A stretch of 41,238 bases of DNA, from positions 1-41,238 of the forward strand of contig CAYMJO010000002.1 of NCBI GenBank assembly GCA_964391305.1, given 5' to 3'. The DNA is from an uncultured Candidatus Saccharibacteria bacterium (lineage in GTDB: Bacteria > Patescibacteriota > CALEFQ01). Of the stretch, positions 8,356-40,439 are shown in pieces (the first letter of the stretch is position 1; each line of letters starts with the position of its first letter). Both the position numbers and the translations under genes were made by a program. The notes under the pieces are model-generated. The model had not been told where the DNA came from and ran no database searches. It saw only the letters and a program-made list of their open reading frames with translations.

Positions 8356-8417
8356 AATTATAAATTAGTGTTATAAAAAAGCCCATGCCAATTTGGGCAA
8401 TAGTTTGGTTTATTTTT

Positions 8418-20964: not shown

Positions 20965-20968
20965 TCTT

Positions 20969-21916: not shown

Positions 21917-21920
21917 TTTT

Positions 21921-22646
21921 ATGAGAGAAAAAAAAGATTTCTATTCCAAAAACCGCGCAATAGATATAATGGAAACAGGTAATTCTTATAATTACCTGAT
22001 TGGTCTTCTGAAATTTTTTGGTTTGAAAAAATTTCTGGATATTGGCTGCGGCGATGGATCATTTGCCAGCGCCGTTGGTAAAGCATGTGGCTGTGAGGTG
22101 AGTGGAGTGGATATTGCCGCACAATCTGTCAGTGAGGCAAGGGCTCGCGGCGTGGACGCGCATATTATAGATCTGGATGAAAAAAATTTGCCTTTTCCAA
22201 ATGAAACTTTTGATTGCGTATTCTGCGGCTATATCATTGAGCATTTGTATTCGCCGGATCATATGATGGAAGAGGCTCGCCGCGTGCTTAAACGGGGCGG
22301 AAAGATTATCGTTACGACTGCGAACCTGGCTTCTTGGTTCAATCGATTATCTCTTCTATTTGGCTATCAACCGATCTTTACGGATGTCAGCTTGAAGCAC
22401 AGCTTCGGACATCTCTGGAAACTCGCGCCAATGGGTCATTTGCGCCTGTATACTTATAGAGCTCTTCGAAAAATGATCGAGATTTACGGATTTAAAATAA
22501 TCAAGGTCAAGGGATTGGGAATAAGCAACAAATTCGGTTTCGGCAAATCACATCCATGGATCGCTAATTTTGCAAATTTTATTTTTCAAAAACCCTCTTT
22601 ATGTTCCCATTTAATCATTATGGGAACCAAAGAATCAAAAAGATGA
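21921..22646 (+). CDS. Class I SAM-dependent methyltransferase (MetW-like layout)
   Basis: Motif I is LDIGCGDGSFA, followed by FCGYIIEHLYSP and a C-terminal NLASWFNRLSLLFGYQP segment that recalls MetW-type proteins. Confidence 0.8.
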   Translation: MREKKDFYSKNRAIDIMETGNSYNYLIGLLKFFGLKKFLDIGCGDGSFASAVGKACGCEVSGVDIAAQSVSEARARGVDAHIIDLDEKNLPFPNETFDCVFCGYIIEHLYSPDHMMEEARRVLKRGGKIIVTTANLASWFNRLSLLFGYQPIFTDVSLKHSFGHLWKLAPMGHLRLYTYRALRKMIEIYGFKIIKVKGLGISNKFGFGKSHPWIANFANFIFQKPSLCSHLIIMGTKESKR

Positions 22647-23425
22647 AATCGGGCAATACAGACAATTATAGTAAATTATATACAAAAGATTATTTGCTCA
22701 ATATCAACGGAGGCGGCGAGGAGTTTTCGGCTGGTAAAATATCAAGAAGACTTCAGCAGGCGATAGATCTGGTCGATTTTAAACAAAGTGATAAAATTTT
22801 GGATTTAGGTGCTGGGTGCGGAGAATTCGGATATGCTCTCCGTGATAAAGTTGAAGAAATAGTTCTATCCGATTATTCCGACGACGCATTGGCGATCATG
22901 CGGGAAAGAATTGATGAGAATGAAAAAGTGCGAATTGAGAAGATCAATGCAAAGAAAATTTCTTATCCTGACAATTATTTCGATAAAATATTTTTACTGG
23001 AAGTTATCGAACATTTATATCCAAACGAAGCCGATATTGTTCTTCGGGAGATAAAGCGTGTCTTGAAGAAAAACGGAGAATTGGTGATATCGACAAGTCC
23101 CAATAAATATTTGTCTTATCCTCAATATTTTATTGCCGAGAAAATTTTCAAGCTAAAGCTAAAGGAGTATCATGTCAACGAATTTTCATTTTTTTCTTTT
23201 CAAAAAAAGATCAGAAAACATTTTCCCTATTGCAAAATTTATTGCTATCAGGAGAAACTATGGTTTGACATTTGCCTCAAAGAAGCAGCTGTTCCAAAAT
23301 TTGTCAAAAGTCTCGTGCATTCGTTTAATGTCGTTTACGACTGGAAACCGTTTGTCTATTTAAGAGACAGATCTCCATTGAACCGTTTTTTGGCTATTCA
23401 CTATAACGCCGTGGCAAGAAAGTAG
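22643..23425 (+). CDS. Class I SAM-dependent methyltransferase
   Basis: Motif I is ILDLGAGCGEFG, followed by FLLEVIEHLYP. The ATG at 22643 overlaps the upstream TGA in an ATGA junction; the ORF track start at 22601 is less likely. Confidence 0.8.
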   Translation: MKSGNTDNYSKLYTKDYLLNINGGGEEFSAGKISRRLQQAIDLVDFKQSDKILDLGAGCGEFGYALRDKVEEIVLSDYSDDALAIMRERIDENEKVRIEKINAKKISYPDNYFDKIFLLEVIEHLYPNEADIVLREIKRVLKKNGELVISTSPNKYLSYPQYFIAEKIFKLKLKEYHVNEFSFFSFQKKIRKHFPYCKIYCYQEKLWFDICLKEAAVPKFVKSLVHSFNVVYDWKPFVYLRDRSPLNRFLAIHYNAVARK

Positions 23426-23437
23426 TTTATTTGTTCT

Positions 23438-24502
23438 ATGAAATATATTTTCAAGGGATTAAAAAATATCATAAACCAGACCGGGCCAAAAGCCCGCGGC
23501 TTGACTTGGCAGTCGTTGAAGAATTACACATGGGCTTTCATGAAAATTCCCACGAGAGTTCCTCTGCCGGTAGAGATCCAATTGGAACCGTCCGCGCTTT
23601 GCAACTTGAGATGTAAAATGTGCACACTGGACAAAGATACAAAAGGCGATAAATTCCTTAGCCGGCAGAATCTTAAAAAACTTTTGAATGATTTGGGTCA
23701 GTTGAAAACGATCAATTTCACAGGAATGGGAGAGAGCTTGCTGAATAAAGATCTGGAGTTTTTGATAAAAGAGGCCAAGTGGTCTGGGATTGAAACCTAT
23801 TTCATTACCAATGGGCAATTGCTTTCCAAAGAGAGAGCAAATAGGCTAATCAAAGCCGGTTTGGACAAAATCGCGATTTCGATTGAAAGTGCGGATCCGA
23901 AAATTTATGAAAAGATTCGCGGAGGAGTATCTTTTGATAAATTGGAAAAAAATATCTCCGATTTGAAGAGAGTAATCAAGAAAAATAATGCCAAAATCAA
24001 ATTGGGCTTCAATGTGGTATTTTTAAAAGAAAATATAAACGATCTAGATAGTATTTTTAAAATAATAGACTTCGCAAAGAAATTTGATATTGATTTCATC
24101 TCATTCCAAAATGTCCACGATGCTTTCATGAATCAAACTATTTCTTTTTTTAAAAAAGACAAGGGTTTATTGATAAGAAATTTATTTGAAATCGAAAAAT
24201 ATTGCGGGCAAAAAGAGATAGAGGTTTCATTGCCTTCGGTTGAAATGAAACCAAATAGCTGTTATTATCCATGGATATATCCCTTTATTACGGCCTCCGG
24301 CGAATTGTTGCCCTGTTGCGTGATTCCCCAGTTTGGAGCATATCAAAAAATAGTTGAAAAATATTCTTTTGGAAATGTTTTTACAGACAGCTTCGCAAAA
24401 GTTTGGAATGGATCAAAGGCCGCAGCCTTTCGCAAGACGCTTACAAGAAAGAAACCAGACAAGCATTGCAGACGATGTTCAAAGTATTTGAATATTTTAT
24501 AA
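23438..24502 (+). CDS. Radical SAM enzyme with a SPASM/twitch-like C-terminal Cys domain (paralog of 18283-19296)
   Basis: Cluster motif ALCNLRCKMC (Cx3Cx2C). The C-terminal cysteines are SCYYPW...LLPCCVIP...CRRCSKY, the same Cys pattern as the paralog. Confidence 0.8.
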   Translation: MKYIFKGLKNIINQTGPKARGLTWQSLKNYTWAFMKIPTRVPLPVEIQLEPSALCNLRCKMCTLDKDTKGDKFLSRQNLKKLLNDLGQLKTINFTGMGESLLNKDLEFLIKEAKWSGIETYFITNGQLLSKERANRLIKAGLDKIAISIESADPKIYEKIRGGVSFDKLEKNISDLKRVIKKNNAKIKLGFNVVFLKENINDLDSIFKIIDFAKKFDIDFISFQNVHDAFMNQTISFFKKDKGLLIRNLFEIEKYCGQKEIEVSLPSVEMKPNSCYYPWIYPFITASGELLPCCVIPQFGAYQKIVEKYSFGNVFTDSFAKVWNGSKAAAFRKTLTRKKPDKHCRRCSKYLNIL

Positions 24503-24514: not shown

Positions 24515-26998
24515 ATGGACGCCAATAAGAAAAAAATCATAATCGATATTGTAATAATTTTGGTTATCGCCTTGGTTAGTTTGAGTTGGTTTTCAGGAGA
24601 TTTAATAGTTAGTAGCGGCGATAATATTTTTAATTACAAACCCACGGAAACTTTGGACAGATATTTTAACACTTGGGATACGCAATCTACACTTGGTATT
24701 CCCGACAACCAAAGCCTCTGCCAGATTTTTCCCTATCAAACAACACTGGCTTTGGCTGATCAAATAGGAATACCGCTCCATATCGTGCAGAAAATACAAT
24801 ACTATATTCTCTTTGCCTTCAGCGGTCTGACGATGTACTTCTTGGTACGCATAATATTGAAAGATAGCAAGCATCAGCGGTTGCCGGCAATCTTTGCGGC
24901 GCTTTTCTACATGTTTAATCCCTTTGCACTTGTTGTAGTTTGGGGAGGGAACTTGACCCTTATTAATTTTTATGCCATTTTACCGTTTTTCATAGGCGGC
25001 TATTTGAGGGGGATTCGCGATAAGAAATACATCTACGTTATTTTGATTCCTGTCGTTGGGTTGCTTTTCTCCATGGCATACTCCGTGACGGCGCTGATAC
25101 TTCTAACATGGCTCCTTATCTTTTCTATGTTGTTCTTTTATATTATTTATAATTTGAAAAAGGAAAGAAGAAAGAAGATTTTCTCCGCTCTCAAATTCAC
25201 ACTTTTACTTCTCTTGGTATGGTTTGCTCTTAATTCGTATTGGCTATTGCCATATATTAATGATGCTGGAAATTTGATTGTTACTGCTACCTATGAAAAT
25301 CCAACCCAAAACCTCATTGGTGTGAGCCAATCATCAAGTGCCGTCAATGCTTTTCGAATGTTAACCTATCCTCCTTTTTATCAAAAATTCATGGGGGTAG
25401 ATGCCTTTTTCCCATATGCGGGAATATATAATACTCTTGGGTTTCAGATTTTGTCCGGTATTTTCACAACTCTGGCTTTGATAGGAATTTTCTTCTCATG
25501 GAAAGTTTATCCGAAGCACCGAAAAATTCTTTGGTTTCTAGCTCTATTGTTTATTGTTACTTTCTTTTTGTTTAGGGGAAGCAATTCCATATTTGGAAAT
25601 ATGTATATCTGGATGATGGAAAGCTTTCCATGGATGGTTGCCTTCCGCATTCCAATCGATAAGTTCGGACCACTCTTTGTATTGGCGTACGCTATCTTCG
25701 CCGCTCTGGGACTAAGCATTCCCGCCAATTATATTTTTTATAAGTCAATATTTTTTCCAAAAATAACTAAGAGGCTTTTTATTGGAGTGTTGGCGTTTCT
25801 GCTTGTCGGCGTTCTGATGTTTCCTATGTGGACCGGACAGGTATTCTATCGGGGAGGCACATACAGGGCTTCTTATCTCACAAAGCCGCCTTCGGAGTAC
25901 TCCGAATTGGCCGATTATTTGAGAAACGATCCGGGTGCATATCGCTTATTTCCAATACCGATATGTGGCAATTGGGGATGCGGACTTTGGTGGAACAACG
26001 GGAAGCACGGACACAGTGGTGGTAACCCTCATTTTTCTCTGCTGCCCAAGTCTGCTATCCTAGTCAATTCGGAAGGCTTGGCAACTTTTATAATCCAAGA
26101 GTTAGCCACAAAAACCGAAGATCAAATTAACATTTACAATGTAAATCTTGCACTGGGACTACTGAATGTAAAATACTTTTTATTGCACAGGGATTTGGCT
26201 GAAGATTATTTTGCTTATGATAAAAAACAGATGGATTTATTGGCATCTTATCTGGACAACGGGAAGCTCGAAGGAATAACAAAAGCAGCGGAATTTGGAG
26301 ATTTGACCTTGTATCAACTGAACAATCAATATTACTTGCCTCAAATATACGCGCCAAACAGGATTGTCAGGAGCAATATTGCGCTCAACGAGTTTCCAAC
26401 GGAACAATTGGAAAAAGAGCCTTTGGCCGATACCGATATTCCAGCATTTATAAATTTACCTCCGGTGTTTGCGCAGGAAATAGACGCGAAGCAGTGGGAA
26501 GATAATGGCAGGGCCTATAAAATAATTACAGATCCCGGCTTTCATACACCCATGCTTGATTTCAAGCAAGTCTCTCCCAGCAAATGGCGAGTGATCGTTA
26601 CGGATTTTCAAAATCCCTTTCTTCTAGTGATGTCGCAACAATTTAACAACAAATGGAAAATGTATACCAAGCCGCTTGTAGATGAAGAGCTTATAGAAGA
26701 AGCTACTACCGAAAATATTGAATATTTTAAAAATGTCCGAGAAAACAAATTTTTGGAAAACAAATCTATTTGGGAAACAGTTTCCCAAATAGAAACGCCC
26801 AAGGCTCATCTGTTGGTTAATGGCTATGCCAATGGCTGGTGGATAGAGGGCTATAAAGATACTGCTGAATTCGAATTGATTCTGGAATACAGTCCGCAGC
26901 GTTTGTATTATATCGGTGTAATCGTCTCCCTAATAACTGTCTTGATACTGATATTTTCTTATCTTAAGATTAGAAAGAAATCCTATGGCGGATTATAA
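24515..26998 (+). CDS. AftD/DUF3367-like GT-C membrane glycosyltransferase (single module, 827 aa)
   Basis: Many TM segments, a GD loop after TM1 (VSSGDNIFNY), an ectodomain of ~358 aa, then NGYANGW and a terminal TM. It is collinear in motifs with both halves of the 1957-aa ORF. Confidence 0.65.
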   Translation: MDANKKKIIIDIVIILVIALVSLSWFSGDLIVSSGDNIFNYKPTETLDRYFNTWDTQSTLGIPDNQSLCQIFPYQTTLALADQIGIPLHIVQKIQYYILFAFSGLTMYFLVRIILKDSKHQRLPAIFAALFYMFNPFALVVVWGGNLTLINFYAILPFFIGGYLRGIRDKKYIYVILIPVVGLLFSMAYSVTALILLTWLLIFSMLFFYIIYNLKKERRKKIFSALKFTLLLLLVWFALNSYWLLPYINDAGNLIVTATYENPTQNLIGVSQSSSAVNAFRMLTYPPFYQKFMGVDAFFPYAGIYNTLGFQILSGIFTTLALIGIFFSWKVYPKHRKILWFLALLFIVTFFLFRGSNSIFGNMYIWMMESFPWMVAFRIPIDKFGPLFVLAYAIFAALGLSIPANYIFYKSIFFPKITKRLFIGVLAFLLVGVLMFPMWTGQVFYRGGTYRASYLTKPPSEYSELADYLRNDPGAYRLFPIPICGNWGCGLWWNNGKHGHSGGNPHFSLLPKSAILVNSEGLATFIIQELATKTEDQINIYNVNLALGLLNVKYFLLHRDLAEDYFAYDKKQMDLLASYLDNGKLEGITKAAEFGDLTLYQLNNQYYLPQIYAPNRIVRSNIALNEFPTEQLEKEPLADTDIPAFINLPPVFAQEIDAKQWEDNGRAYKIITDPGFHTPMLDFKQVSPSKWRVIVTDFQNPFLLVMSQQFNNKWKMYTKPLVDEELIEEATTENIEYFKNVRENKFLENKSIWETVSQIETPKAHLLVNGYANGWWIEGYKDTAEFELILEYSPQRLYYIGVIVSLITVLILIFSYLKIRKKSYGGL

Positions 26999-28196
26999 AG
27001 ATATCGAATTCAATATTTTTGCGAATACCATGGTGGAGCCCGGAATGAGCGGCGGCAACAAAATTTTTATCGAAATTGCCAAGGAATGGGCAAGGAGAGG
27101 AATGAAGATTATCATTTTCACCTCCGATGTCGGCAAAAAAATCTGTGTTGAAAATGGACTCGACCGTGCGGAATTTGTAACATGGGAAGCTGGAAAATTT
27201 TCGAAGTTTGGCGTGTTTATTCAATACTTAAGAGGTATTTTTATTGGCTTAAAAAATGTTTCACAAAAAAGTACAAAGCAAAACCGAAAGTTTAAAGTGA
27301 TTTATGCCTCTTCGGATTATTGGCCAGATTCAATTCCCGCTTTCTTTATGAAGGCAAAAAACAAGACGGCTTATTTAATTGGTTCCCTTTATCTGAAAGC
27401 GCCCAACCCATTCAAGGGCTTTCGGGAAAATAGCAATTGGAGATTTCCAAAAATATCAAATATCATTTTCTATCTCACTCAAAAACCGATTTACTGGCAT
27501 ATTTTGAAAAAGGCCCAGATTGTTTTTGTAACATCCGAACCGGATCGACAAATTTTTATAAAAGCGGGACGAAAGCCGAAAGAAGTTTTGACAATTCAAG
27601 GAGGCGTTGATATAACCGCCGCACAGAATTTTTTACAGAATAATAAAATTACCGATGAAAAGAAAAAATACGATGGCTGTTTCATGGGACGCCTGCATCC
27701 GCAGAAAGGACCGGTGGAACTGATCGATATTTGGAAATTGGTCACAAAAAAGAAGCCAGATGCAAAACTCGCCCTGATCGGACATGGAGCGCTGGAAAGC
27801 AAAGTCAAAAGCAAAATAAAGCGATACGGACTGCAAAACCAAATAGATATGCTGGGATTCAAATCGGGCGAGAAAATGCATACGATATTTCGAGAGAGTC
27901 GAGTCATGCTCCATCCCGCTATTTATGATAGCGGGGGAATGTCCGCATGGGAAGGCATGGCTTGGGGACTGCCTGGAATTGGCTTTGATCTGCCAGCGCT
28001 CAAAACTTATTATCCGGCCGGAATGCTAAAGGCCCCAATTGGGAATTTCCAGGCATTTGCCAATTTAGTTCTAAAATTGCTCAAAAATCCATCGCTCTAT
28101 GATAAAATTAGTAAAAAGGCTGTCGCGGGAAGCCTCAATTGGAGCTGGGAAAAAAGAGCCAAGAAAGTTTTTAATCAAATACAAGTAATGTTTTAA
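26985..28196 (+). CDS. GT4-family glycosyltransferase
   Basis: Motifs: EPGMSGGNKIF, GRLHPQKGPVELIDIW and SGGMSAWEGMAWGLPGIG. It overlaps the upstream gene by 14 nt. Confidence 0.8.
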   Translation: MADYKDIEFNIFANTMVEPGMSGGNKIFIEIAKEWARRGMKIIIFTSDVGKKICVENGLDRAEFVTWEAGKFSKFGVFIQYLRGIFIGLKNVSQKSTKQNRKFKVIYASSDYWPDSIPAFFMKAKNKTAYLIGSLYLKAPNPFKGFRENSNWRFPKISNIIFYLTQKPIYWHILKKAQIVFVTSEPDRQIFIKAGRKPKEVLTIQGGVDITAAQNFLQNNKITDEKKKYDGCFMGRLHPQKGPVELIDIWKLVTKKKPDAKLALIGHGALESKVKSKIKRYGLQNQIDMLGFKSGEKMHTIFRESRVMLHPAIYDSGGMSAWEGMAWGLPGIGFDLPALKTYYPAGMLKAPIGNFQAFANLVLKLLKNPSLYDKISKKAVAGSLNWSWEKRAKKVFNQIQVMF

Positions 28197-28208
28197 AACG
28201 TGATTATT

Positions 28209-31200
28209 ATGAAAAATTTCTTCAGAAAATGGTGGCCCCAGATAATTGTTATTATTGCCAGTTTCGGTGTTTTATTGTTGTTTAAAGATCAGATGATCAT
28301 TGCCGGCGGCGACAGTATTCTGGATCTGGATTATACAAACTGGTTTGGGCCTCTTAGCTCTGCATGGAACGATAAGGTCAATTTGGGCAGTGCTAATTCC
28401 TCTCTGGCTCGCTTTTTCCCAACTGTTGTTTTTTGGAAATTTTTTAGTCTCTTACACGTTCCGACGTGGCTTATCCAAAGATGCTGGATATTGGCGTTAT
28501 CAAGTAGTTCTGGGTTGTCGGTTTTTTATTTAGTAGTCAATTTGTTTCAGAAACGCACTGTATCGATAAAAATTGGAGCAATCGTGGCAAGCATTTTGTA
28601 TCTTTACAATATGTTTGTCGTGACCGATCCAACTCAAGTAAATTTACATCTCATTCTTGCCATTCTTCCTTGGTTGTTACTGTTATGGATGAAAGGCCTA
28701 AACAAGAAAAAATTTGATTTTACTTTTTCTCTTTGGATCGGCATTATTTCATTGCTGATTGCCGCGTCAGCCACCAACATCGCCTCTATCAGCGTTGTTC
28801 CTATAATCTTAGGTATTTATTTCCTTCATCACATTGCGACAAAGCCCAAGACTTTCAAGCGGAGCTTACTGTTTGCCTTGGCAACGATCGCTAACTGCAT
28901 AATATTCAACCTCTGGTGGATTTCAACATCTATCTTATTCATGCTAAAAACCAGCCATGAAACCGCTGCGGTTTCCGCTGAAGTTTCTTTTATTGACAGC
29001 GCCAAAGTCATTGATGCACTTCGCCTTCTCGGAAGCTGGGCGTTTGAAACCAGTTATAATAGCATACCGCTTTTTGGATATTCAAATCTGTTCACCACGG
29101 GAATCTTGGTACTGACTACGTTGCTTATCACTATTTTTATATTTTTAACTTTTTTAAAAAAATATTTACTCCGAAGCACTCTCTTCTTTTTACTTTTGTC
29201 TATTGTGGGAATTTTCCTTGTAAAAGGCTCCAATCCTCCATGGGGAGAGCTTTACAGTTTTCTTCACAGTAAACCGGTATTTTGGATTTTCCGCGAACCG
29301 TTTTCAAAATTCACGCCGATTACGCTTTTGGCATTTTCCGTTTTGATTGGTCTGGCGATGACAATGCTTCTTAGCAAAATAAAGAAAATGTCAATAAACA
29401 AAAAAGTTCTAGTGAGCTTCGTTACTGTGGCAATCGTGATCTGTTTGCTATTGGTCAATGCCTTTCCTCTGTTGACTGGACAGGCAATATGGGATAAGGA
29501 AAATGGCTCAATGAGATCTCTGCATACAAAAGTTCCCGACTATTGGCAGGAAGCCGACAATTGGCTTTCCGAGAATGATCCAAAATCTCAAGTTCTGCTT
29601 CTGCCAAAAGCCGGGTACGGACAAGCTTACAATTGGGAACACGGCTTCGGTGGGGCCTCGTACGTTGCCATGGTTGTGCTTTCCAATTCTACAGTCGGTT
29701 ATCCTGCACATCCAGTTTCCAAAACGGACAAGGCTCTAATAGAAGTATACGACCTACTCGATTCTGACAAATTAGGACATTTTGCCAAAGCCCTTTCTGT
29801 CCTGAATGTGAAATACATATTACAGCAAAATGATTTGAATTGGCAGCAGGGTTTGCTGTTTAAAAGCCCTTCTCCATCTGTTATGAAAAGCAAGTTAGGG
29901 CAGATTGATGGAATCAAACCGGTAAAAAGTTTCGGACAACTTGACTTATACCAGCTGGATGACAAGTTCTTGAGTGAGACTATTGAGCTGAACAGTCATA
30001 TTACTTACACCGATGGCAATATTGCCGATATTTTTAAGGAAGTGACTTTCAGAGACGGGCAATTGGTTGAAAATTTTTATCTTGCTTCCCAACTTGAAGA
30101 AGATGAAAAAGAAATAATTTCGCAAAAAGCCACGAATCTTGTTCTTAATATCAAACAAGACGAAGATAAGAAAGAAAAATATTTTGAGCTGCCAACGTCG
30201 GGCTCATATGAAATCTTCTTGGCAAACTTAAATACAGATGTCGATAGCGAAAAAATAATCATCAATGGCAAAGAAGTTTTACTGCACAGGGAAGAACTTC
30301 CAGAACAAAATAAAAAGACTAAAAAACAACTGACAGATTTAGAATTAATAGATCCCAAATCATGCGAGGGCGATGATTCCAAGGCTTTGCTTAGATTCAG
30401 TATTCCTCCTGAACTTTCATTGGCAAATAACGCTCTTGAAGGCTTTTTTATCGATAATGAAAAAATCGAGCCGATTGCCATTGATACAAAAAGACACACC
30501 GTAGATATATGTTCTGAAGTTAAAGTTTCGAAAGCGGAAAATGCAAAACCATGGCAAAAGTGGCGTCCCGTTGATACGCAGGCAGGACAAGATATGTACA
30601 GCACAGCTCTCGATGATTCTTTTACGAGTGATCTCACGACAAGTATTGATGATAAAAAATTGATAGTTAGTTTCCTTGGAGATCGGGAAACTAGAGAAGA
30701 ATTTGAAAATTCTCTGACAGAACCATATTCATTGAACATTGGAAGCGTGAAACCGAGAGAAGTTATATTGGTGACGCCTCAAGGCAGTGATCCTCCCGAC
30801 GATTTAAGCGTTTACTATATTAAAAAAGATGATTTGTCTAAACTTGAAAGCTTCTCAATCCGGACAGAAGCTTCATCGCAGTATTTAAAAACTTCTGAAA
30901 AGATCTCTATCAATAAGAGTAGAAATTCAATTTCACTAATTGGTAATTCTGGACTGGATACGGCCGCAAACATCATACTTTCTTCAAATCAATTTGACAA
31001 CTCGATATCTATCGCTGATATGACCTACAAAAAAATATCGGCAACGAAATACGAAGCTAAGATTCCAAAGACAGATACCGATACGACATTGCTTTTTAAA
31101 AATACTTTTGACGAAAAATGGGAAGCTCAAATAGACGGATCTTCTCTCAATAATCATATTATCGCCAATGGATTTGAAAATTCTTGGCAGATCGGAAAGG

Positions 31201-34073
31201 GGCAAGAGGGAATCATAACAATTTCCTATGCACCGCAGAGAACTTTGATTATTGCCCTGATTATTTCCGCCGCTTATCTTGCATTTTCTATTCTTTACCT
31301 CTGGCGAAAGAAAAGGAAGCTCGAGCTTGCAAGAGTCAATTTGGAGATAGATCTGGCTTATGAAAAACCCATTTCGGCTAAATTCAGCATTATCATTGAA
31401 ACGATAATATCCATTGGTTTTTCAGTCTTCGTTGTCCTTATTCTGCTTTCTGTAATATTGAGACTCATACAAAATCGTGATATATCCGATTGGCTTGGCG
31501 TTCAAGCTTTTGTTGTTCTAATAGTTATACTAATCGTCAAGCTGTTCACCGTTGGAAAAAAGTTACAGGCGCACTCTACAATCGTTGAACGCGCCATGAA
31601 GACAGCAGTAGTTTGGATTTTCCAAAAAACATGCAGCTTGGGTATCGAATTTTATCACTTTATGATCAAGCACTGGCCGCTTATCATCATTGCAATATTG
31701 GGATTAGCTTCACAGATCTGGTTCCGAGATAATTTGATTATCGCCAGCGGCGACAATTACCAATATCTTGATCCTGGAAAACTTTTCGACGACAATATTC
31801 TGACCGTCTACGTGAAATCAAACGCGGGCTATGCCAATCCGGCAATCAACACCGTTTTTCCATTCATGTTTTTCTGGAAAGTTTTAGAGGCACTGCATTT
31901 CTCTTTGATCACAATTCAGAGATTATGGTGTTATCTTAACTTCACCGTAGCCGGATTTACGATGTATGCGTTGATTTTCTACTTGTTCCGAAATGAAAAA
32001 TACAACAAGATTGCCGGACTCACAGGAGCATTGCTGTATATGGCAAATGCCTATATTCAACTCGATGTTTTCCAAATTACCGCAAAACCACTTCATGCTG
32101 TCTTTCCTCTCATCTTTTTGCTATGGATCAAAGGATTGCATTATTCAAAGAAAAAAGCTCTCTATTACGCCTTTTCTTTGAGTCTAACGAGTATTTTTAT
32201 CGTTTCATCAGGTGCGAACATCGCTCTAATCGGCGCGCCATTGCTGATATTGCTGGCATATACGATATATTTCTTTATTACCACTAGAAAAAAGATTATA
32301 AGCGGCTTAAAATTCATCGGCTTATCTTTAATATCTCTAATAGTCGTCAATTTATGGTGGTTGATAGTTACCATTCCGGCAATGATAGTCCTAAATCAAA
32401 ATACACCCGAGAAGATAAAAGATGTGACATTCGAAGACAGAACGCATATCATAGATGCCTTCCGTCTATTGGGTGCTTGGGGCTTTAGAATTAAAATGGA
32501 TCTTGGAAATGGGAATTTTGTTCCAAATGTTCCATACGCCGAAGGCTATTATCAACTACCTCTTCTTATCATAACCTTTGGCATTCCAATAATCGCCTTT
32601 CTAGTATTTATATTGAAAAAGGATAAACTTCGAGTGGTAATCTTTCTGGGAATTCTCGCTTTGATCGGATTGTTTCTGATCAAGGGAACAAATCCTCCGT
32701 TGGGAGGAATATATTACATCATCCGCCAAAAAATTCCTATGTTCTGGGTTTTTAGAGAGCCGTTTACAAAATTCATACTGGTTTACCTTTTTCCGCTTTC
32801 TATACTCTTTGGATTATCTATCCAATGCATTACCAATTTTGTCAGAGAAAAGTTTTCCAAAACAAACAAGCCATGGGTAAAAAAGATCTATTTTGCTGTT
32901 CCCATCTTGGCAATAATAGCAATCATTTTCTCCGCTCACCCTCTCTTTACCGGACAGAATGTCCCGGATCACACTTGGTACAATACTCCTAGATATTCTT
33001 CTCGAGTCAAAGTCCCTAAATATTGGAAAGAGCTCGAGACATGGTTTGATAAAAACGATCCGAATGGCCGAGTTGCTCTCTTTCCAAAAGCCAGCTATGG
33101 CCATACATATCGTTGGGGTTCTGGCATGCCGACAGGAAACTACGTTGCAGAAGTCCTCATCTCGAATCCTTTACTTAGATACCCAACCTTGATAAGCCTT
33201 AATATATCAGACATGTTTGTCTCCGAATTGTACACGAAACTGAATGAGCAAAATTTTGACGGGTTCAATAAGCTTATGGACCTATTAAACGCCAAATACG
33301 TATTACAACAAGACGACCTCGCGTGGGATCATGCCCTAGAAGACACACCTAGTCCAGCGATTATGCACAACTTTTTAAATAGGAACAAAGATATTGAAAT
33401 GGTAAAAAACTTTTCCAAGCTTACTTTGTATCGAATCAAAGGCGCAGACAAAAAAAACATCGCCGAGGTAGCAAAAGAAATAAAATTGATCCCCGCGCCC
33501 GCAAATAAGGAAGATATCCCCAATGCGATTATCAATGAATATAATCCCAATACCGCAATTTTAATAAAAGGCATAAATAATGATGGAAAGGAAGATAAAG
33601 TCGAAGGAACTCTTGCAGAATTAAGCAATACCAAATCGTCTTCCATCAAAGTTATCAAGTTGTCGCCAACTCGTTACCAAATCAATGTCAAAGGCAAAAA
33701 TAAATTTTTCTTAACATTCAAAATGACATTTTTGGAAGACTGGAAGGCATACGTTTTATCAGAGAATCAAAAGTTTAGCCCATTGAATAAAAAAGGAAAA
33801 ATATCCGAAGATCTCCATTTTGTTACCAACGGCTACGCAAATGGCTGGATTGTAACGCCTCCGGGCTGTGTAGTGGATGAAAAATGCGGAGATTCTTACA
33901 ATGTGATCATTGACTATAACCCCCAAAATGTGCTATATTTAGGTCTGATAATTTCTGGCTCCGCGCTGGCTTGTTTTGTGGTTTATCTGATAATTTTTCC
34001 CTTTTTTAAAGGGAAAAAAAACAGAAAGATATCAGAACCCTATGAAGATTCTTCTCGCCAATCCACCATGTAG
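28209..34073 (+). CDS. Giant membrane protein made of two tandem AftD/DUF3367-like GT-C modules
   Basis: One uninterrupted frame; ATG at 28209 or GTG at 28200. Module 1 covers ~28209-31320, a two-TM linker ~31321-31661, and module 2 31662-34073. The two modules share ordered motifs with each other and with ORF 24515-26998 (see findings). Confidence 0.8.
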   Translation: MKNFFRKWWPQIIVIIASFGVLLLFKDQMIIAGGDSILDLDYTNWFGPLSSAWNDKVNLGSANSSLARFFPTVVFWKFFSLLHVPTWLIQRCWILALSSSSGLSVFYLVVNLFQKRTVSIKIGAIVASILYLYNMFVVTDPTQVNLHLILAILPWLLLLWMKGLNKKKFDFTFSLWIGIISLLIAASATNIASISVVPIILGIYFLHHIATKPKTFKRSLLFALATIANCIIFNLWWISTSILFMLKTSHETAAVSAEVSFIDSAKVIDALRLLGSWAFETSYNSIPLFGYSNLFTTGILVLTTLLITIFIFLTFLKKYLLRSTLFFLLLSIVGIFLVKGSNPPWGELYSFLHSKPVFWIFREPFSKFTPITLLAFSVLIGLAMTMLLSKIKKMSINKKVLVSFVTVAIVICLLLVNAFPLLTGQAIWDKENGSMRSLHTKVPDYWQEADNWLSENDPKSQVLLLPKAGYGQAYNWEHGFGGASYVAMVVLSNSTVGYPAHPVSKTDKALIEVYDLLDSDKLGHFAKALSVLNVKYILQQNDLNWQQGLLFKSPSPSVMKSKLGQIDGIKPVKSFGQLDLYQLDDKFLSETIELNSHITYTDGNIADIFKEVTFRDGQLVENFYLASQLEEDEKEIISQKATNLVLNIKQDEDKKEKYFELPTSGSYEIFLANLNTDVDSEKIIINGKEVLLHREELPEQNKKTKKQLTDLELIDPKSCEGDDSKALLRFSIPPELSLANNALEGFFIDNEKIEPIAIDTKRHTVDICSEVKVSKAENAKPWQKWRPVDTQAGQDMYSTALDDSFTSDLTTSIDDKKLIVSFLGDRETREEFENSLTEPYSLNIGSVKPREVILVTPQGSDPPDDLSVYYIKKDDLSKLESFSIRTEASSQYLKTSEKISINKSRNSISLIGNSGLDTAANIILSSNQFDNSISIADMTYKKISATKYEAKIPKTDTDTTLLFKNTFDEKWEAQIDGSSLNNHIIANGFENSWQIGKGQEGIITISYAPQRTLIIALIISAAYLAFSILYLWRKKRKLELARVNLEIDLAYEKPISAKFSIIIETIISIGFSVFVVLILLSVILRLIQNRDISDWLGVQAFVVLIVILIVKLFTVGKKLQAHSTIVERAMKTAVVWIFQKTCSLGIEFYHFMIKHWPLIIIAILGLASQIWFRDNLIIASGDNYQYLDPGKLFDDNILTVYVKSNAGYANPAINTVFPFMFFWKVLEALHFSLITIQRLWCYLNFTVAGFTMYALIFYLFRNEKYNKIAGLTGALLYMANAYIQLDVFQITAKPLHAVFPLIFLLWIKGLHYSKKKALYYAFSLSLTSIFIVSSGANIALIGAPLLILLAYTIYFFITTRKKIISGLKFIGLSLISLIVVNLWWLIVTIPAMIVLNQNTPEKIKDVTFEDRTHIIDAFRLLGAWGFRIKMDLGNGNFVPNVPYAEGYYQLPLLIITFGIPIIAFLVFILKKDKLRVVIFLGILALIGLFLIKGTNPPLGGIYYIIRQKIPMFWVFREPFTKFILVYLFPLSILFGLSIQCITNFVREKFSKTNKPWVKKIYFAVPILAIIAIIFSAHPLFTGQNVPDHTWYNTPRYSSRVKVPKYWKELETWFDKNDPNGRVALFPKASYGHTYRWGSGMPTGNYVAEVLISNPLLRYPTLISLNISDMFVSELYTKLNEQNFDGFNKLMDLLNAKYVLQQDDLAWDHALEDTPSPAIMHNFLNRNKDIEMVKNFSKLTLYRIKGADKKNIAEVAKEIKLIPAPANKEDIPNAIINEYNPNTAILIKGINNDGKEDKVEGTLAELSNTKSSSIKVIKLSPTRYQINVKGKNKFFLTFKMTFLEDWKAYVLSENQKFSPLNKKGKISEDLHFVTNGYANGWIVTPPGCVVDEKCGDSYNVIIDYNPQNVLYLGLIISGSALACFVVYLIIFPFFKGKKNRKISEPYEDSSRQSTM

Positions 34074-35550
34074 AATAAAGCTTTCTAGCGGTTATGAACG
34101 CTACTTTGTGCGTGCCGGGAGCCGCTGGCCTTTTTCTACAAAGAAAAAGAGGGAAGAAAAGCTTGAATATGTGCCTTTTCCGTTTTATTTGGCATATTCC
34201 GCGGCATTGCTTAAGAAAGAGGGATTTGAAGTGCATGCGTACGATGGTGTGGCTTTGAATGTGACCGAAAAATTTTTTTTAAAAAAAGTAAAAGAAATAA
34301 ATCCGGATATTGTACTCTTTGAAACTTCTACGCCGACAATTTCAGAAGATTTGAAATTCGCCAAGGAAATTAAGAAGCAAACCTCTAGGGTTGTAATATG
34401 TCTTGCCGGACCGCACGTGACGACTTTTCCGAAGAAAACTTTGGAAAGTTGTAAAGAAATTGATTATGTTTTACTGCAAGAATACGAGCTTTCCTTTCTA
34501 GATCTTTGTAAAATTTTGAAAGAAAAGCAATCCCCTGAAAATATAAAAGGAATTGCTTACAGGAAAGATGGACCGATTCAAATTAATAAGGCAGATTTGA
34601 TAGATCCGCTGAATCAGCTACCATTTCCAGATAGAACAATTTTCCCATCCAACGATAAACCGGACATAAACGTTTACTGGGACGGTTTCTGCCAATACAA
34701 ACCGTCTGTGCAAATGCATGCCTCTAGAGGCTGTCCGTTTCGATGTAATTTTTGTCTCTGGAATCAAGTCATGTATCAAAATGGAAAGTACCGAATGTTT
34801 CCTCCAAAACGCATCGTCGATGAAATGATAGACGCTCAAAAAAAATTTGGCGCCAAGGAAATTTATTTCGATGATGATACGTTTACGGCGGATAAAAAAC
34901 AAGTTTTGAGTATTTGCAAAGAAATCAAGCGGAGAGGTTTGAATATCAAATGGTCGGTGATGGGCGACGCGATGATTTCGGATAAAGAAATGATCGACGC
35001 CATGGCAGACGCCGGTTGTATCGGCATGAAATTTGGAGTCGAATCCGGTAATTTGAAAATCTTAAAACATATCAAAAAGCCCGTGAATTTCGATAAATTG
35101 AGAAAAGTTGCCAAATGGTGCGCGGCTCGAAAAATCAAAACCCACGCGACTTTTACCTTTGGGCTTTCTGGAGAAAGCGCGCAGACGATGGAAGAAACCC
35201 TGGACTTGGCAAAAAGTCTCGATGTTGATTCGGTACAATTTAGCATTACCACTCCATTCCCCGGAACGCGCTATTACGACGAATTAAGAGAAGAAGGAAG
35301 ATTGCTCGCGAAAAACTGGAAAGAATATGACGGCGCTTCGTCTTCGATTGTCAAATTTGAGCATTTGGAAAATAAGGAAGTGGAGAATTTTTGCGCAACG
35401 GCGAGCGGCAAATGGCTGCGCAACAAAGCTGTGAAGCCCACTTGGGTTCTTAGACAAATATTCAATCTCAACCGATTACGCAGGGGACAGGGGACAAAGG
35501 CTATTTTCAGTCGAGTCAAACGTGGATTCGAACTGGCTTCTCATAAATGA
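34042..35550 (+). CDS. B12-binding-domain radical SAM enzyme (class B)
   Basis: The B12-like segment is DIVLFETSTPT...VICLAGPHVTTFP. The cluster motif is ASRGCPFRCNFC. Its first 32 nt overlap the end of the giant gene in another frame. Confidence 0.85.
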   Translation: MKILLANPPCRIKLSSGYERYFVRAGSRWPFSTKKKREEKLEYVPFPFYLAYSAALLKKEGFEVHAYDGVALNVTEKFFLKKVKEINPDIVLFETSTPTISEDLKFAKEIKKQTSRVVICLAGPHVTTFPKKTLESCKEIDYVLLQEYELSFLDLCKILKEKQSPENIKGIAYRKDGPIQINKADLIDPLNQLPFPDRTIFPSNDKPDINVYWDGFCQYKPSVQMHASRGCPFRCNFCLWNQVMYQNGKYRMFPPKRIVDEMIDAQKKFGAKEIYFDDDTFTADKKQVLSICKEIKRRGLNIKWSVMGDAMISDKEMIDAMADAGCIGMKFGVESGNLKILKHIKKPVNFDKLRKVAKWCAARKIKTHATFTFGLSGESAQTMEETLDLAKSLDVDSVQFSITTPFPGTRYYDELREEGRLLAKNWKEYDGASSSIVKFEHLENKEVENFCATASGKWLRNKAVKPTWVLRQIFNLNRLRRGQGTKAIFSRVKRGFELASHK

Positions 35551-35565: not shown

Positions 35566-37029
35566 ATGAAACATAAATCTGAAATATTATTCGTAAATCC
35601 CGGCAGATATCTCTACGCTTATCCATCCCTTGGAATTGGATATCTGTCTTCTTATTTAAAAAAATATTCGAAATATGTTGAAAAAATTTCTCTAGCCGAT
35701 GAGAACGCCAAGGAGGTACCCGAAGATATTATAAAAGAAAATAGGCCGCGAATAGTCGGAATTATAGCTTCAACACCACAGATAAACCGGGCTCATGCAA
35801 TCGCAGAATTTTGCAAGGCTATGGATAAGGATATCATCTGTATTGTAGGAGGCGTGCATACATCCATATTGCCAAAAAGAACTCTTAAGGAATTTCCATG
35901 TTTCGATGTTGGGGTTTGCGGTGAAGGCGAAGAAACACTCAAGGAACTCGTTGACAATATTTTTGAAGCAGACTTCAGGCTCGACAAAGTAGACTGTTCG
36001 TCTATCAAAGGTTTAGTATATCGTAAGGAAGATAAGGTGTTTGTTTCCCCAAAAAGAGAGCTGATCAAAAATCTAGACACAATACCGATACCGGACAGAC
36101 GTTTGTACAATTTGAAATTTTATTTAAAGCCTAGACAAGCGATTAGAGGCGTTGCACGCAAGGCCGTTCAGATGATGAGCTCTCGAGGATGCCCTTATAA
36201 TTGCCGGTTCTGCTCCAGTTGTATCATGTGGGAAAGAAAAGTAAGATTTCATTCTTCAGAGCGTTTTATCGAAGAAGTTGAAGATCTAATCAGTCTCGGG
36301 TTTAATGGCTTCTTCCTACACGATGACACTTTTATCGCAGACAAAAAAAGAGTCCACCAAATTTGTGAGTTGTTGATAAAGAAGAACTATCATAAAAAAT
36401 TGATCTGGGCGGCGCAGCTTAGGCCCAATTTGATAAATAATGAAGATGATGTTGAAATGCTGCGGCTAATGAAAAAAGCTGGTTGTCTTCAGGTCGAATA
36501 TGGCTTCGAGAGCGGCTCCGACAAAGTTTTATCTTTTCTAAAAAGAAACTCCGCCACCATCAAGCAAAATCAGAAAGCAATTGATTTGACAAAAAAATCC
36601 GGTTTAAGAATCTTCGGCAACTTTATGTTGGGAACACAAGGAGAGACAAAAGAAGATATTATCAAGACAAAGAAATTTGTTCTTCGAAACAGCAACAAAC
36701 TGGATTATTTTCAAGCGTATATCACAACACCATATCCGGGAACGGAATTATGGGATCTTTGTAAAAAAGAAGGATTGCTCAAAGACGTTACTTGGGAAAA
36801 GTTTGGCATGGGAATTCTGGATGAAGTCGTTTTTTCCAACACGGTCGATCATGATTTCGTTTTGCAAACAGTGAGAGAATTGACACAGCACGCCGTGGGA
36901 AAAATTTCTACCATAGATAAACTAAAATGGCTGCGAGTAAGACTGGCGGATGATCCTAAATATGTCTTTAATATGTTAAAAGAACACTTTTTCCAAAGTG
37001 CTTCTATCAAATCACACGATGACAAGTAA
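35566..37029 (+). CDS. B12-binding-domain radical SAM enzyme (class B)
   Basis: The B12-like segment is IVGIIASTPQ...ICIVGGVHTSILP. The cluster motif is SSRGCPYNCRFC. Confidence 0.85.
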   Translation: MKHKSEILFVNPGRYLYAYPSLGIGYLSSYLKKYSKYVEKISLADENAKEVPEDIIKENRPRIVGIIASTPQINRAHAIAEFCKAMDKDIICIVGGVHTSILPKRTLKEFPCFDVGVCGEGEETLKELVDNIFEADFRLDKVDCSSIKGLVYRKEDKVFVSPKRELIKNLDTIPIPDRRLYNLKFYLKPRQAIRGVARKAVQMMSSRGCPYNCRFCSSCIMWERKVRFHSSERFIEEVEDLISLGFNGFFLHDDTFIADKKRVHQICELLIKKNYHKKLIWAAQLRPNLINNEDDVEMLRLMKKAGCLQVEYGFESGSDKVLSFLKRNSATIKQNQKAIDLTKKSGLRIFGNFMLGTQGETKEDIIKTKKFVLRNSNKLDYFQAYITTPYPGTELWDLCKKEGLLKDVTWEKFGMGILDEVVFSNTVDHDFVLQTVRELTQHAVGKISTIDKLKWLRVRLADDPKYVFNMLKEHFFQSASIKSHDDK

Positions 37030-38227: not shown

Positions 38228-39712
38228 ATGATAGCCTTTGTTTCAAATAGTAAAAATATACGAAGTATGACTGTTCCTGTTCATTATCTTAACATGTCGT
38301 CGTTCTTGACAGCTCATGGAATCGAAAATGACATTATCGAAGTCAAAGAACGATCTAGATTTATAGATAGGCCTTCCGAATATTACGATAACATTTTGAT
38401 TAACAGAATAAAGAAAAAACCCTATAAATATATCGGGCTTTCTTGCTATACGACAGATTATAATACAACATTAAAACTTATTAAAAAAATAAAGAAGGCG
38501 TTGCCCGACGTAAAAATTATAATTGGAGGACCACATGTGACTTTGCGTCCCAAGGATCCATTTCTTTCAAAAGCCCCCGTGGATGTAGTCATTATAGGAG
38601 AAGGAGAATATCCACTATTAAATATTTTAAAAAAGAAGAAAAGTCTGCATGAGATTGACGGCGTTTGTTTCAAAGAAAAAGGAAAAATCATAATTAACAA
38701 ACCACAATGTCTAGCTAAAGATCTGACGCACATTCCATTGCCCGCATACGACAAGATTGACATGGATTTTTATCTGCGACCTGACAATATGGGAATAAGA
38801 TTTTTGGTGACATCGTGCATACATATTTTTACGAGTCTTGGCTGTCCGTTCAACTGCGTCTTCTGCGCAAATAAAGGGCTGTACAAAGCGCAAAATAGTA
38901 GTAAAATAGTCAGATGTAAAAGCGTTGATCAAGTTATCAATGAAATCAAATTTTTAAAAAAGAAATACGGCATGGAAGCTTTTTACATACAGGACGACAC
39001 CCTTACGCTAGATAAAAAAAGAGTTAAAGAAATATGCCGTCGATTGAAAAAGGAAAAGCTTAACATGCTTTGGGGAGCAGAGACGCGAGTAAACCTTATC
39101 AACGAAGATCTTATTGTAAAAATGAAATATGCTGGATGCCGTCAACTCGATTTTGGAGTTGAGGCGGCAACTCAAGAAGCGCTGGACAGAATCAAAAAGA
39201 AAATAACTATCGAAGAGACCAAGAAGGCTTTTGCATTATGCCGAAAACATGGGATAAGAACGGGGGCAAATATCATGCTCAATATTCCAGGAGAAACGGA
39301 AAGGGATGTGAAAGAAATCAAAGGATATCTGAAATCTCTCAAAGCGGACGTATATTACATCGCTCTCACTGTTCCTTTTATTGGAACGGAAGCGTATGAC
39401 AAATATGTGAAACCTCGACTCACTCTCAAAGAGTACTCCCTTTTTGAAAATCCTTTTTTGTACGGCACTATCATTGACAAGCGCTTTCGACTGGCGAAGC
39501 ACAATCTGCCGCTCGAAAAAATCATTGCCAAAATGCGAGTTTCCTTGGTTCTGCCCAAAACAATTTTGGATTTTCCCCTACGCATGTTTTATATAAAATA
39601 TCTATGGAAATCGAAATATAAGCTGGCAATTTTATACTCAATGGCGAAAAACTTTATAGCCGTATTTAATCTAGGCTTGGAATTTTTGTTCAGAAAGAAA
39701 TCTCCTCAATAA
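38228..39712 (+). CDS. B12-binding-domain radical SAM enzyme (class B)
   Basis: The B12-like segment is YIGLSCYTTDY...KIIIGGPHVTLRP. The cluster motif is TSLGCPFNCVFC. Confidence 0.85.
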   Translation: MIAFVSNSKNIRSMTVPVHYLNMSSFLTAHGIENDIIEVKERSRFIDRPSEYYDNILINRIKKKPYKYIGLSCYTTDYNTTLKLIKKIKKALPDVKIIIGGPHVTLRPKDPFLSKAPVDVVIIGEGEYPLLNILKKKKSLHEIDGVCFKEKGKIIINKPQCLAKDLTHIPLPAYDKIDMDFYLRPDNMGIRFLVTSCIHIFTSLGCPFNCVFCANKGLYKAQNSSKIVRCKSVDQVINEIKFLKKKYGMEAFYIQDDTLTLDKKRVKEICRRLKKEKLNMLWGAETRVNLINEDLIVKMKYAGCRQLDFGVEAATQEALDRIKKKITIEETKKAFALCRKHGIRTGANIMLNIPGETERDVKEIKGYLKSLKADVYYIALTVPFIGTEAYDKYVKPRLTLKEYSLFENPFLYGTIIDKRFRLAKHNLPLEKIIAKMRVSLVLPKTILDFPLRMFYIKYLWKSKYKLAILYSMAKNFIAVFNLGLEFLFRKKSPQ

Positions 39713-39734: not shown

Positions 39735-40400
39735 ATGAACCAAAATCAACTCAAAAATTCAGAAGCAGGTTACGATAAATTGCACTCCGATGAGGGATTT
39801 GCCGAAGAGCCGGAATATTATGAAATTTTGGGCTCGTTCCTTCGCGGAAATAAATCTGTCGATATCGGCTGCGGATCTGGTTTGATTGAAATTTTTTCTC
39901 CAGATACGGTCGCCGTTGACTTTTCAAAAAAGGCTTTGGAAATTGCGAAGAAAAAGGGAGCAAAGACTACAGTCCAGGCTCCAGCGGAGAAACTGCCTTT
40001 TAAAAACGATGAATTTCAAGTATCGTTGAGCAACGGTGTTCTTGAGCACTGTGTCGGCCAAACGAAAGCAGTATCGGAAATGGTTCGTGTTTCCAAAATA
40101 CAAATTCTTATCGTTCATGCCAAGCTTCCATTCCCATTTGCCCAACTCCGACCACTGACTAATAAAATCTTCGGACTTAAAGATCAACCGGTTGAAAATC
40201 CACTTTCCTTGCGAGAGATCAAAAGAATTCTCAAGGAAGCGGGATCAAGAACATTTATTGAGGGGGTTTGGAACTATATTGATCCTCGATGGATTTGGAA
40301 AAGGCTTCCATATGGTTTGATCAAATGGCCTTCACACTATTTCATTGTTGGCATGAAGACCAATAATACCGAGCGCAAGTTTTTAGGAGATATGAAATAA
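39735..40400 (+). CDS. Class I SAM-dependent methyltransferase
   Basis: Motif I is VDIGCGSGLIE, followed by LSNGVLEHC. Confidence 0.75.
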   Translation: MNQNQLKNSEAGYDKLHSDEGFAEEPEYYEILGSFLRGNKSVDIGCGSGLIEIFSPDTVAVDFSKKALEIAKKKGAKTTVQAPAEKLPFKNDEFQVSLSNGVLEHCVGQTKAVSEMVRVSKIQILIVHAKLPFPFAQLRPLTNKIFGLKDQPVENPLSLREIKRILKEAGSRTFIEGVWNYIDPRWIWKRLPYGLIKWPSHYFIVGMKTNNTERKFLGDMK

Positions 40401-40439
40401 TATTCACTTAATCCAATATTTTAATTAATTTGGACATTT

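Follow-up and report, generated by a model that had tools for sequence, protein, structure and literature searches.

GT-C glycosyltransferases (GTs), which synthesise essential glycans of the cell envelope, are targets of drugs; ethambutol, for example, acts on the Emb proteins. Enzymes of this type take lipid-linked donors at the extracytoplasmic face (PMC11127046). In three-component systems, represented by GtrA/GtrB/GtrC and by Citrobacter ORF12 of GT136, a GT2 enzyme charges polyprenyl phosphate with a sugar, a flippase exports the product, and a GT-C enzyme, often carrying an immunoglobulin-like, beta-rich domain, adds the sugar outside the cell (PMC11127046). The alpha-(1->3)-arabinofuranosyltransferase AftD of Mycobacterium (6W98, 6WBX and 6WBY) is a single module of about 1400 amino acids (aa) whose donor is decaprenyl-phospho-arabinose. 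It possesses 16 transmembrane (TM) helices, three carbohydrate-binding modules (CBMs) and a bound acyl carrier protein (ACP), and residues K39, D41, E251, K361 and D474 are essential in the M. abscessus enzyme (bioRxiv 10.1101/2019.12.22.885152). The present analysis concerns a gene at positions 28209-34073 (+ strand) of a 41,238-nucleotide (nt) stretch of DNA, referred to as the window, from an uncultured Candidatus Saccharibacteria bacterium (contig CAYMJO010000002.1 of assembly GCA_964391305.1). This gene encodes two AftD-family modules in a single chain. The reading favoured here, and considered fairly probable from sequence comparison, is that two neighbouring, diverged AftD-family genes were fused in frame, yielding two active GT-C modules that would carry out consecutive transfers at the outer face of the membrane.

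Two AftD-family modules in one reading frame

The open reading frame (ORF) runs uninterrupted on the + strand from a GTG at 28200 to 34073, with an ATG at 28209, and its 1954-aa product from this ATG is identical to database entry P0001. A first-pass annotation of the window had already described one frame without a stop, which is correct; its length of 1957 aa applies if counting begins at the alternative GTG start and not at the ATG. All motifs it quoted are present in the translations of the fused ORF and of the ORF at 24515-26998, and the three Asp codons lie at 28311, 31752 and 24620, where it had placed them. The two halves, aligned by BLASTP (residues 1-1035 against 1036-1954), match between residues 3-591 and 1150-1753 (609 aa aligned, 34% identity, E = 2e-100); a second, collinear match joins their last ~110 aa (31% identity, E = 1e-8). 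The tandem repeat proposed in the annotation is therefore real and far beyond chance. This confirms that the fused ORF encodes two complete, diverged AftD-family GT-C modules in one chain, hereafter M1 and M2. The stand-alone paralogue claimed upstream is likewise present, as the ORF at 24515-26998 matches both halves with 25% identity along almost the full length of each (E = 1e-34 and 3e-44).

Family assignment was examined for each half separately. Pfam PF11847 (GT-C_AftD, formerly DUF3367; gathering cut-off 26 bits) matches M1 with 98.3 bits and M2 with 45.7 bits. In a PDB sequence search, the solved AftD entries 6W98 and 6WBX were matched by module 1 alone (E = 1.4e-4), and a 15-sequence family profile reached them across ~570 positions (E = 1.5e-27). 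AlphaFold2 modelled residues 1-1125 with a mean pLDDT of 73.6 and a pTM of 0.72, very confidently at 1-650 and 930-1045 and poorly at 669-918, and residues 1126-1954 with a pLDDT of 89.5 and a pTM of 0.90. The best Foldseek match of both models is AftD (6w98_A; E = 8.4e-20 for M1 and 4.9e-16 for M2), followed for both by STT3, DPY19, AftA, PglB and ArnT. NCBIfam holds no model for the fused protein. The agreement of PF11847 and Foldseek on each half supports the assignment of both modules to the PF11847 family and predicts a GT-C fold for each.

The layout of the protein was derived from hydropathy and AlphaFold2 helices, and its topology from the positive-inside rule. The membrane domain of module 1 (28209-29492, aa 1-428) comprises 11 TM helices according to hydropathy and AlphaFold2 helices. 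It contains Asp35 (28311-28313) in extracytoplasmic loop 1 (EL1), R272 and W277 in the motif RLLGSW, and R362 and K367 in FREPFSK. It is followed by an extracytoplasmic domain of ~580 aa (29493-31235, aa 429-1009), which consists of a GT-C soluble domain with W476 and D542, an insert at 669-918, and a C-terminal beta-sandwich with NGFENSW at aa 987. The C-terminal membrane anchor (31236-31559) is formed by TM12 (aa 1010-1033), a basic cytoplasmic patch, WRKKRK, directly behind it, and a TM13-TM14 hairpin (aa 1055-1117); a stand-alone homologue, P0004, ends with the same three elements. Between the hairpin and module 2 lies a Lys/Arg-rich cytoplasmic stretch of ~40 aa. Module 2 begins with a cytoplasmic helix and an 11-TM membrane domain (31599-32954, aa 1131-1582), in which the key residues are Asp1182 of EL1 (31752-31754), R1419 and W1424, and R1516 and K1521. 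Its extracytoplasmic domain (aa 1583-1905, ~320 aa), with W1636, D1703 and NGYANGW at aa 1874, and the final TM helix (1906-1935) occupy 32955-34013. All of these parts are on the + strand.

Basic residues cluster in the predicted cytoplasmic loops, a distribution that, together with hydropathy, fits an N-in topology. Module 1 is predicted to end in the cytoplasm. As its extra hairpin contributes two TM helices, an even number, TM1 of module 2 again runs from inside to outside, and the loop-1 sites D35 and D1182 would both face outward. Both catalytic loops are thus predicted to be outward-facing from hydropathy and the positive-inside rule. Of the module limits first proposed (~1-1035 and ~1155-1957), the division into two modules holds, but 1036-1155 is no neutral spacer, because residues 1055-1117 are the TM hairpin of module 1. 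The revised limits are ~1-1118 for module 1, ~1119-1130 for the seam, and ~1131-1954 for module 2.

The insert is specific to module 1 (window 30213-30962, aa 669-918, ~250 aa) and is modelled with a pLDDT below 50. It is conserved in three fused orthologues and in P0004, and the region around it (aa ~600-930) had no match in a Pfam or PDB sequence search. A match to the A118 integrase (E = 0.03) was dismissed as chance. The insert is an uncharacterised extracytoplasmic domain.

For the comparison with AftD at residue level, the 6W98 chain numbering equals the numbering of the published paper plus 3, as checked at E251 and W272. AftD K361 corresponds to the invariant Lys of FREPFxK, which is K367 in M1, K1521 in M2, and K383 in the paralogue. 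AftD R357 corresponds to R362 and R1516, a position 99% conserved in the family, and W272 to W277 and W1424. In pairwise alignment D41 falls on D39 (and D37 on D35), and in the family profile AftD K39 stands in the D35 column. The acidic loop-1 residue emphasised in the annotation is found in all three modules of the window (D35, D1182 and, in the paralogue, D36); its column holds D or E in ~93% of 187 family modules (D 79%, E 14%) and is conserved in the orthologues.

M1 and M2 both keep G60, N134, P154, N234, W237, R272, G340, R362, K367, P420, G424, P443, P466, W476 and D542, with D35/D1182, R272/R1419, R362/R1516, K367/K1521, W476/W1636 and D542/D1703 as equivalent pairs. W53, conserved to 96% in the family, is replaced in the M2 clade by V, V or A. 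The paralogue keeps D36, R281, R378 and K383 and has lost the equivalents of G275, W277 and P344. Since M1 and M2 have diverged to a similar degree among the orthologues, a similar constraint appears to act on both, and on these sequence grounds both modules are probably active.

The modules of the window share with AftD an 11-TM GT-C membrane domain, a soluble GT-C domain and C-terminal TM helices, as well as the EL5 Arg and Lys (K361 equivalent), the EL4 Trp (W272 equivalent) and the EL1 acidic residue. Nevertheless, AftD is one module, whereas the window protein carries two in one chain, and identity in structural alignments is only ~12%. The three CBMs of AftD (F5/8 type C and others) have no counterpart, as the window protein is devoid of F5/8-type or other recognisable CBMs, and a Pfam search of aa 565-1035 and of the M2 ectodomain came back empty at E <= 1. 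The window protein also lacks PF00754, a domain of the actinobacterial homologues P0014, P0015 and P0018-P0020, and PF24607, which the majority of these homologues possess. In AftD, five C-terminal TM helices bind ACP/phosphopantetheine, whereas module 1 has three such helices, and module 2 and the paralogue have one each. The pathway genes for decaprenyl-phospho-arabinose are also absent from the 41-kb cluster: among window ORFs of >= 100 aa there was no match to the arabinose-donor genes (UbiA-type phosphoribosyl pyrophosphate transferase, DprE1/DprE2), a result that holds for the cluster only. Lacking arabinose-donor genes in its cluster, CBMs and an ACP-binding bundle, the protein belongs to the AftD family, yet it is neither orthologous to AftD nor demonstrably an arabinofuranosyltransferase. 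The label "AftD-like" is thus appropriate for family and fold and inappropriate for orthology.

Conservation and origin of the fusion

The same two-module architecture occurs in P0002 (GCA_042570845.1, "Patescibacteria group bacterium"), which is clipped by a contig end, and in P0003 (Logan SRR22387783, 1932 aa). P0002 is the closest fused orthologue and is annotated by NCBI as "alpha-(1->3)-arabinofuranosyltransferase family protein". Among P0001, P0002 and P0003, M1 is 53-57% identical to M1, and M2 is 52-61% identical to M2. The inter-module region is conserved in all three, with an in-frame seam of ~30 aa. The occurrence of the same fusion in two orthologues from independent assemblies, the conserved inter-module region, and the synteny with a downstream B12-binding radical S-adenosylmethionine (SAM) gene make a misassembly or a lost stop codon very unlikely. 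The fusion is real and conserved in evolution.

An unfused state is preserved on contig L001, where P0004 (1137 aa) ends at 13414 and P0024 (905 aa) begins at 13415, the two genes abutting as TGAATG in the junction cgcTGAATGgaa. P0004 aligns with residues 1-1112 of the fused protein, both hairpin helices included, so that most of the former "linker" belongs to module 1; the similarity to P0024 starts at ~1150. In the alignment, the stop/start boundary comes directly after G1116-K1117-K1118, which places the seam at residues ~1119-1130 (31563-31598, + strand). A short cytoplasmic seam thus seems to have replaced the former stop/start junction. An in-frame ATG at 31596 (Met1130) coincides with the expected beginning of the second gene and is possibly a vestige of its start codon. 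Internal translation from Met1130 was considered and set aside, as there is no Shine-Dalgarno-like sequence upstream.

A profile search of 1.84 billion representatives returned 18,276 family members at E <= 1e-3, of which 7,547 reached E <= 1e-30. The survey of architectures covered the best 150 of the 18,276, with 187 sequences fetched. Lengths in this set peak at 700-1300 aa, single-module proteins of this size being the norm, and two GT-C modules occur in this set only in P0001, P0002, P0003 and P0136. The architecture is therefore rare but not unique: three other database proteins have it, one of them by an independent fusion. This last protein, P0136 (2606 aa), is encoded in two separate metagenomes (L004, 9429-17249; L005, 6113-13933). 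Its two AftD-family modules are 46% identical and each other's nearest relatives, being only ~20% identical to those of the window, and its gene is surrounded by a cytochrome bd oxidase, a sulfotransferase and a Wzx-GT2 fusion. Because its own modules are nearest to each other and distant from those of the window, and because its context differs, P0136 represents an independent duplication and fusion. Its host is a different organism, probably outside the candidate phyla radiation (CPR).

Two further database proteins represent other kinds of fusion in this family. In P0017 (2108 aa), an AftD-like GT-C domain (aa 1159-1747) is preceded by GT4 and GT2 domains, and P0055 (1722 aa) has a 495-aa N-terminal extension of undefined nature.

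In the lineage of the window, M1 and M2 are ~32% identical to each other, and each is 37-39% identical to single-module proteins. The M1 and M2 clades were each monophyletic in 100/100 neighbour-joining (NJ) bootstraps, and the two were sisters in 13/100, which indicates that the fusion joined long-diverged paralogues. A recent internal duplication as the origin of the window fusion was rejected on the strength of the latter value. Internal duplication does hold for P0136 and probably for the split pair on L001, the copies of which are closest to each other (53-55%).

Paralogues that abut or overlap on the same strand are often seen (L001, L008 and L012; at L009 the two are 1 kb apart). Divergently oriented pairs are found at L006, L010, L016 and L025, and L029 has a single module in the order GT4, GT-C, B12-binding radical SAM. 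Since adjacent paralogue pairs are frequent and single modules occur in the same context, the fusion is, judging from these arrangements, a rare derived state of a common paired arrangement. A scan of genome contigs with the fused-protein alignment, which used DNA patterns from module 1 only and had low sensitivity, recovered only two single-module relatives, in metagenome-assembled genomes of Auribacterota and Moraniibacteriota. A metagenome scan yielded 19 loci and no further fusion. GT-C enzymes of different families also cluster together: at L027 (2561-9012), a YfhO-family GT-C gene is followed by a GT2 and then by the gene for the AftD-family GT-C P0113.

The surrounding glycan cluster

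The stand-alone paralogue (24515-26998, + strand, 827 aa, EKD49279.1) consists of 11 TM helices, an ectodomain and one TM helix, and its PF11847 score of 26.9 bits is barely above the cut-off. It is followed by a GT4 glycosyltransferase gene (26985-28196, + strand), which lies between the paralogue and the fused gene and overlaps the paralogue end by 14 nt (26985-26998). The 3' end of the fused gene is in turn overlapped by 32 nt (34042-34073) by a gene for a B12-binding radical SAM protein (34042-35550, + strand). These overlaps suggest a tight operon with translational coupling of the paralogue, the GT4, the fused GT-C and the radical SAM gene. The position of the B12-binding radical SAM gene downstream of the fused gene is conserved in L002 and L003, where only the order GT-C, radical SAM is seen; P0002 is clipped by the contig end, and upstream of P0003 lies a cut ORF without Pfam data. 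L029 shares the complete GT4, GT-C, radical SAM order, and on L001 the B12-binding radical SAM gene is located between the GT4 and the GT-C pair.

The whole 41-kb window represents one glycan cluster. It encodes RmlB, RmlD, an RmlA-like protein, and a Wzx/MOP-type flippase (8385-9707, + strand) with ~11 hydrophobic segments, the gene of which overlaps that of a soluble GT2 (9691-10464, + strand). This GT2, named "dolichol-phosphate mannosyltransferase" in the source record, is a candidate polyprenyl-phosphate-sugar synthase, its NCBIfam matches being below cut-off. In total, the cluster GTs comprise three GT2 and four GT4 enzymes, one of the latter being a double GT4. A 152-aa ORF (14369-14827) just upstream of a GT2, which has at least two hydrophobic segments and many His, Trp and Tyr residues, was weighed as a potential GtrA-like flippase and rejected, as it has no family match.

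The cluster further encodes five B12-binding radical SAM proteins (12731-14221, 19438-20964, 34042-35550, 35566-37029 and 38228-39712), two radical SAM-SPASM proteins (18283-19296 and 23438-24502) and five SAM-dependent methyltransferases (20933-23425 and 39735-41222). The best NCBIfam match of the five B12-binding (class B) paralogues is HpnJ, with 263 bits against a cut-off of 577. The unusual richness in radical SAM genes and the recurring neighbourhood of AftD-like GT-C and B12-binding radical SAM genes in L001, L003 and L029, with a GT4 in L001 and L029, suggest a conserved pathway leading to a heavily C-/O-methylated or radical-modified glycan.

The double GT4 is a 771-aa protein (15965-18280) in which Pfam recognises two Glyco_transf_4 and two Glycos_transf_1 stretches; its chain thus contains two GT4 (GT-B) modules, which makes it the cluster's second tandem fusion of glycosyltransferases. 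Two other ORFs have no Pfam or NCBIfam family. The first (5172-6521, + strand, 449 aa) has one N-terminal hydrophobic segment, probably a signal peptide, and internal repeats, among them GVYLIGNEGAKHPFW and AVYLIDQNKKRPFW. The second (6792-8276, - strand, 494 aa) has one N-terminal TM helix and a large outside domain. No other sizeable ORF on the minus strand of the window is free of overlap with a + strand ORF.

Proposed function and comparison with known systems

According to the favoured reading, the GT4 and GT2 enzymes of the cluster would assemble the glycan backbone in the cytoplasm, and the Wzx-type flippase would export it. The donor would be a polyprenyl-phosphate sugar, made in the cytoplasm by the dolichol-phosphate-mannose-synthase-like GT2 at 9691 and then flipped across the membrane. 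Each GT-C module could then move a sugar from the lipid-linked donor onto the cell-surface glycan at the outer face of the membrane. M1 and M2 would catalyse two different, consecutive transfers, a probable outcome given their ~32% identity and their different ectodomains. The fusion would fix both modules at a 1:1 stoichiometry and in proximity, and the stand-alone paralogue at 24515 may add a further step. The donor, the acceptor and the coupling between the modules are inferred by analogy with described systems.

Several observations weigh against this reading. The equivalent of AftD D41 is ambiguous by 2-4 residues between pairwise and profile alignment, as is the register of K39. AftD E251 is without a conserved counterpart at the aligned column, and D474 aligns with S484 in M1 and with Asn in M2. 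AftD was solved as an ACP-bound monomer, so that packing as a dimer is not characteristic of the family. The tree was built by NJ only, and long-branch effects could mask a sister relationship of M1 and M2. The best NCBIfam matches of the GT2 at 9691, namely PpgS, PgfS and ArnC (E 1e-19 to 1e-14), are far below every cut-off. Finally, no GtrA-type flippase was detected, as there is no PF04138 match in the window.

The substitutions at the D474 position also favour the idea that only one module is catalytic and that the other is a degenerate pseudo-enzyme, serving as an acceptor-binding scaffold or built-in carbohydrate-binding module, as do the loss of the conserved W53 in the M2 clade and the extra ~250-aa insert in M1. 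Yet the equivalents of the EL1 Asp, R272, R362, K367, W476 and D542 are kept in both modules of 3/3 orthologues, and the two modules diverge at the same rate (52-61% for M2 against 53-57% for M1), which is unexpected for a relaxed pseudo-domain, making this explanation doubtful. Equally, both modules might perform the same reaction, either as a gene-dosage effect or as a two-headed processive polymerase of one linkage. The shared architecture and motif order, and the mutual proximity of the copies in the L001 pair (53-55%) and in P0136 (46%), would agree with such an arrangement; it is nevertheless rather unlikely for the window protein, the modules of which are nearer to single-module proteins than to each other and have ectodomains that differ about twofold in size. 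A further idea, which goes beyond the favoured reading and is of similarly low probability, is that the fused protein forms an intramolecular pseudo-heterodimer acting as an extracytoplasmic two-site co-polymerase or assembly line, with the growing glycan passed directly between the active sites, from M1 to M2, and the paralogue priming or capping it. If true, the cytoplasmic dual-GT polymerases would have their first counterpart among GT-C enzymes, and the two independent fusions together with the frequent abutting pairs would mark a general, unrecognised, obligate AftD-family pairing outside Actinobacteria.

The acceptor could also be a protein, such as an S-layer protein, a pilin or some other protein of the cell surface, with glycosylation resembling that by PMT, PglB or AglB. 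In favour of this, the structural matches include STT3, PglB, DPY19 and the C-terminal domain of AglB, and CPR cells are thought to be rich in surface proteins. However, these searches also place AftD and AftA, which act on polysaccharides, first or near the top, the cluster resembles a classical polysaccharide locus (Rml, Wzx-type flippase, many GT2/GT4), and no acceptor-protein gene is evident in it, so that a protein acceptor is improbable. The least credible explanation is that the long ORF is an artefact, in which misassembly or a sequencing error removed the stop between adjacent genes. Abutting split genes do exist in a relative (L001), the exact 1954-aa sequence is recorded from one source, this one contig, and the accessions of neighbouring proteins, which are identical to AMFJ01 entries of the CPR-rich Rifle aquifer dataset, span three ACD_63C scaffold numbers (00179, 00180 and 00199), which suggests that the contig merges shorter scaffolds. 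Against this, the same fusion point is seen in GCA_042570845.1 and Logan SRR22387783, whose samples and assemblers were independent, and the second lineage, P0136, is fused in two separate metagenomes.

Neighbouring paralogous genes often fuse in the course of evolution, and neither the family nor the fold nor the general mechanism is new; new is the conserved, rare tandem architecture, and no description of a tandem GT-C fusion was found in open-access papers. GT-C cooperation outside the cytoplasm has so far mostly been inferred from non-covalent complexes, and a natural covalent fusion of two diverged modules, which several uncultured bacteria share and which arose at least twice, provides genetic evidence that AftD-family paralogues act in fixed pairs. 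The fused protein also offers a single-chain target for the structure and biochemistry of consecutive extracytoplasmic transfers. Its uncultured host is probably of the CPR type, a group with very small genomes, and devotes a cluster exceeding 41 kb, three GT-C modules included, to a single surface glycan. This glycan could matter for the episymbiotic, cell-surface-dependent lifestyle of the CPR group.

The logic proposed for the window cluster is that of the three-component Gtr-type systems. The cluster differs from these in that a small GtrA-like flippase was not detected and the GT2 assignment is weak, and it contains a fused pair of GT-C modules plus a third where those systems have one. 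Dual-domain cytoplasmic GTs such as PmHAS, WbbB and KpsC likewise unite two GT modules in one polypeptide for alternating or consecutive transfers. These enzymes are soluble or peripheral GT-A/GT-B (or GT107) proteins that use nucleotide sugars in the cytoplasm, whereas both modules of the window protein are integral-membrane GT-C modules predicted to act outside it. The EmbA-EmbB, EmbC2, Pmt1-Pmt2 and Pmt4 dimers bring together two GT-C protomers, often diverged neighbouring paralogues (embCAB), in one complex at the outer or luminal face, and use polyprenyl-phosphate sugar donors, as proposed for the fused protein. These dimers are non-covalent assemblies of separate polypeptides from other GT-C families, whereas the two paralogues of the fused protein are covalently joined. 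By this analogy, the fused protein may be regarded as a covalent counterpart of GT-C hetero-oligomers such as EmbA-EmbB and Pmt1-Pmt2.

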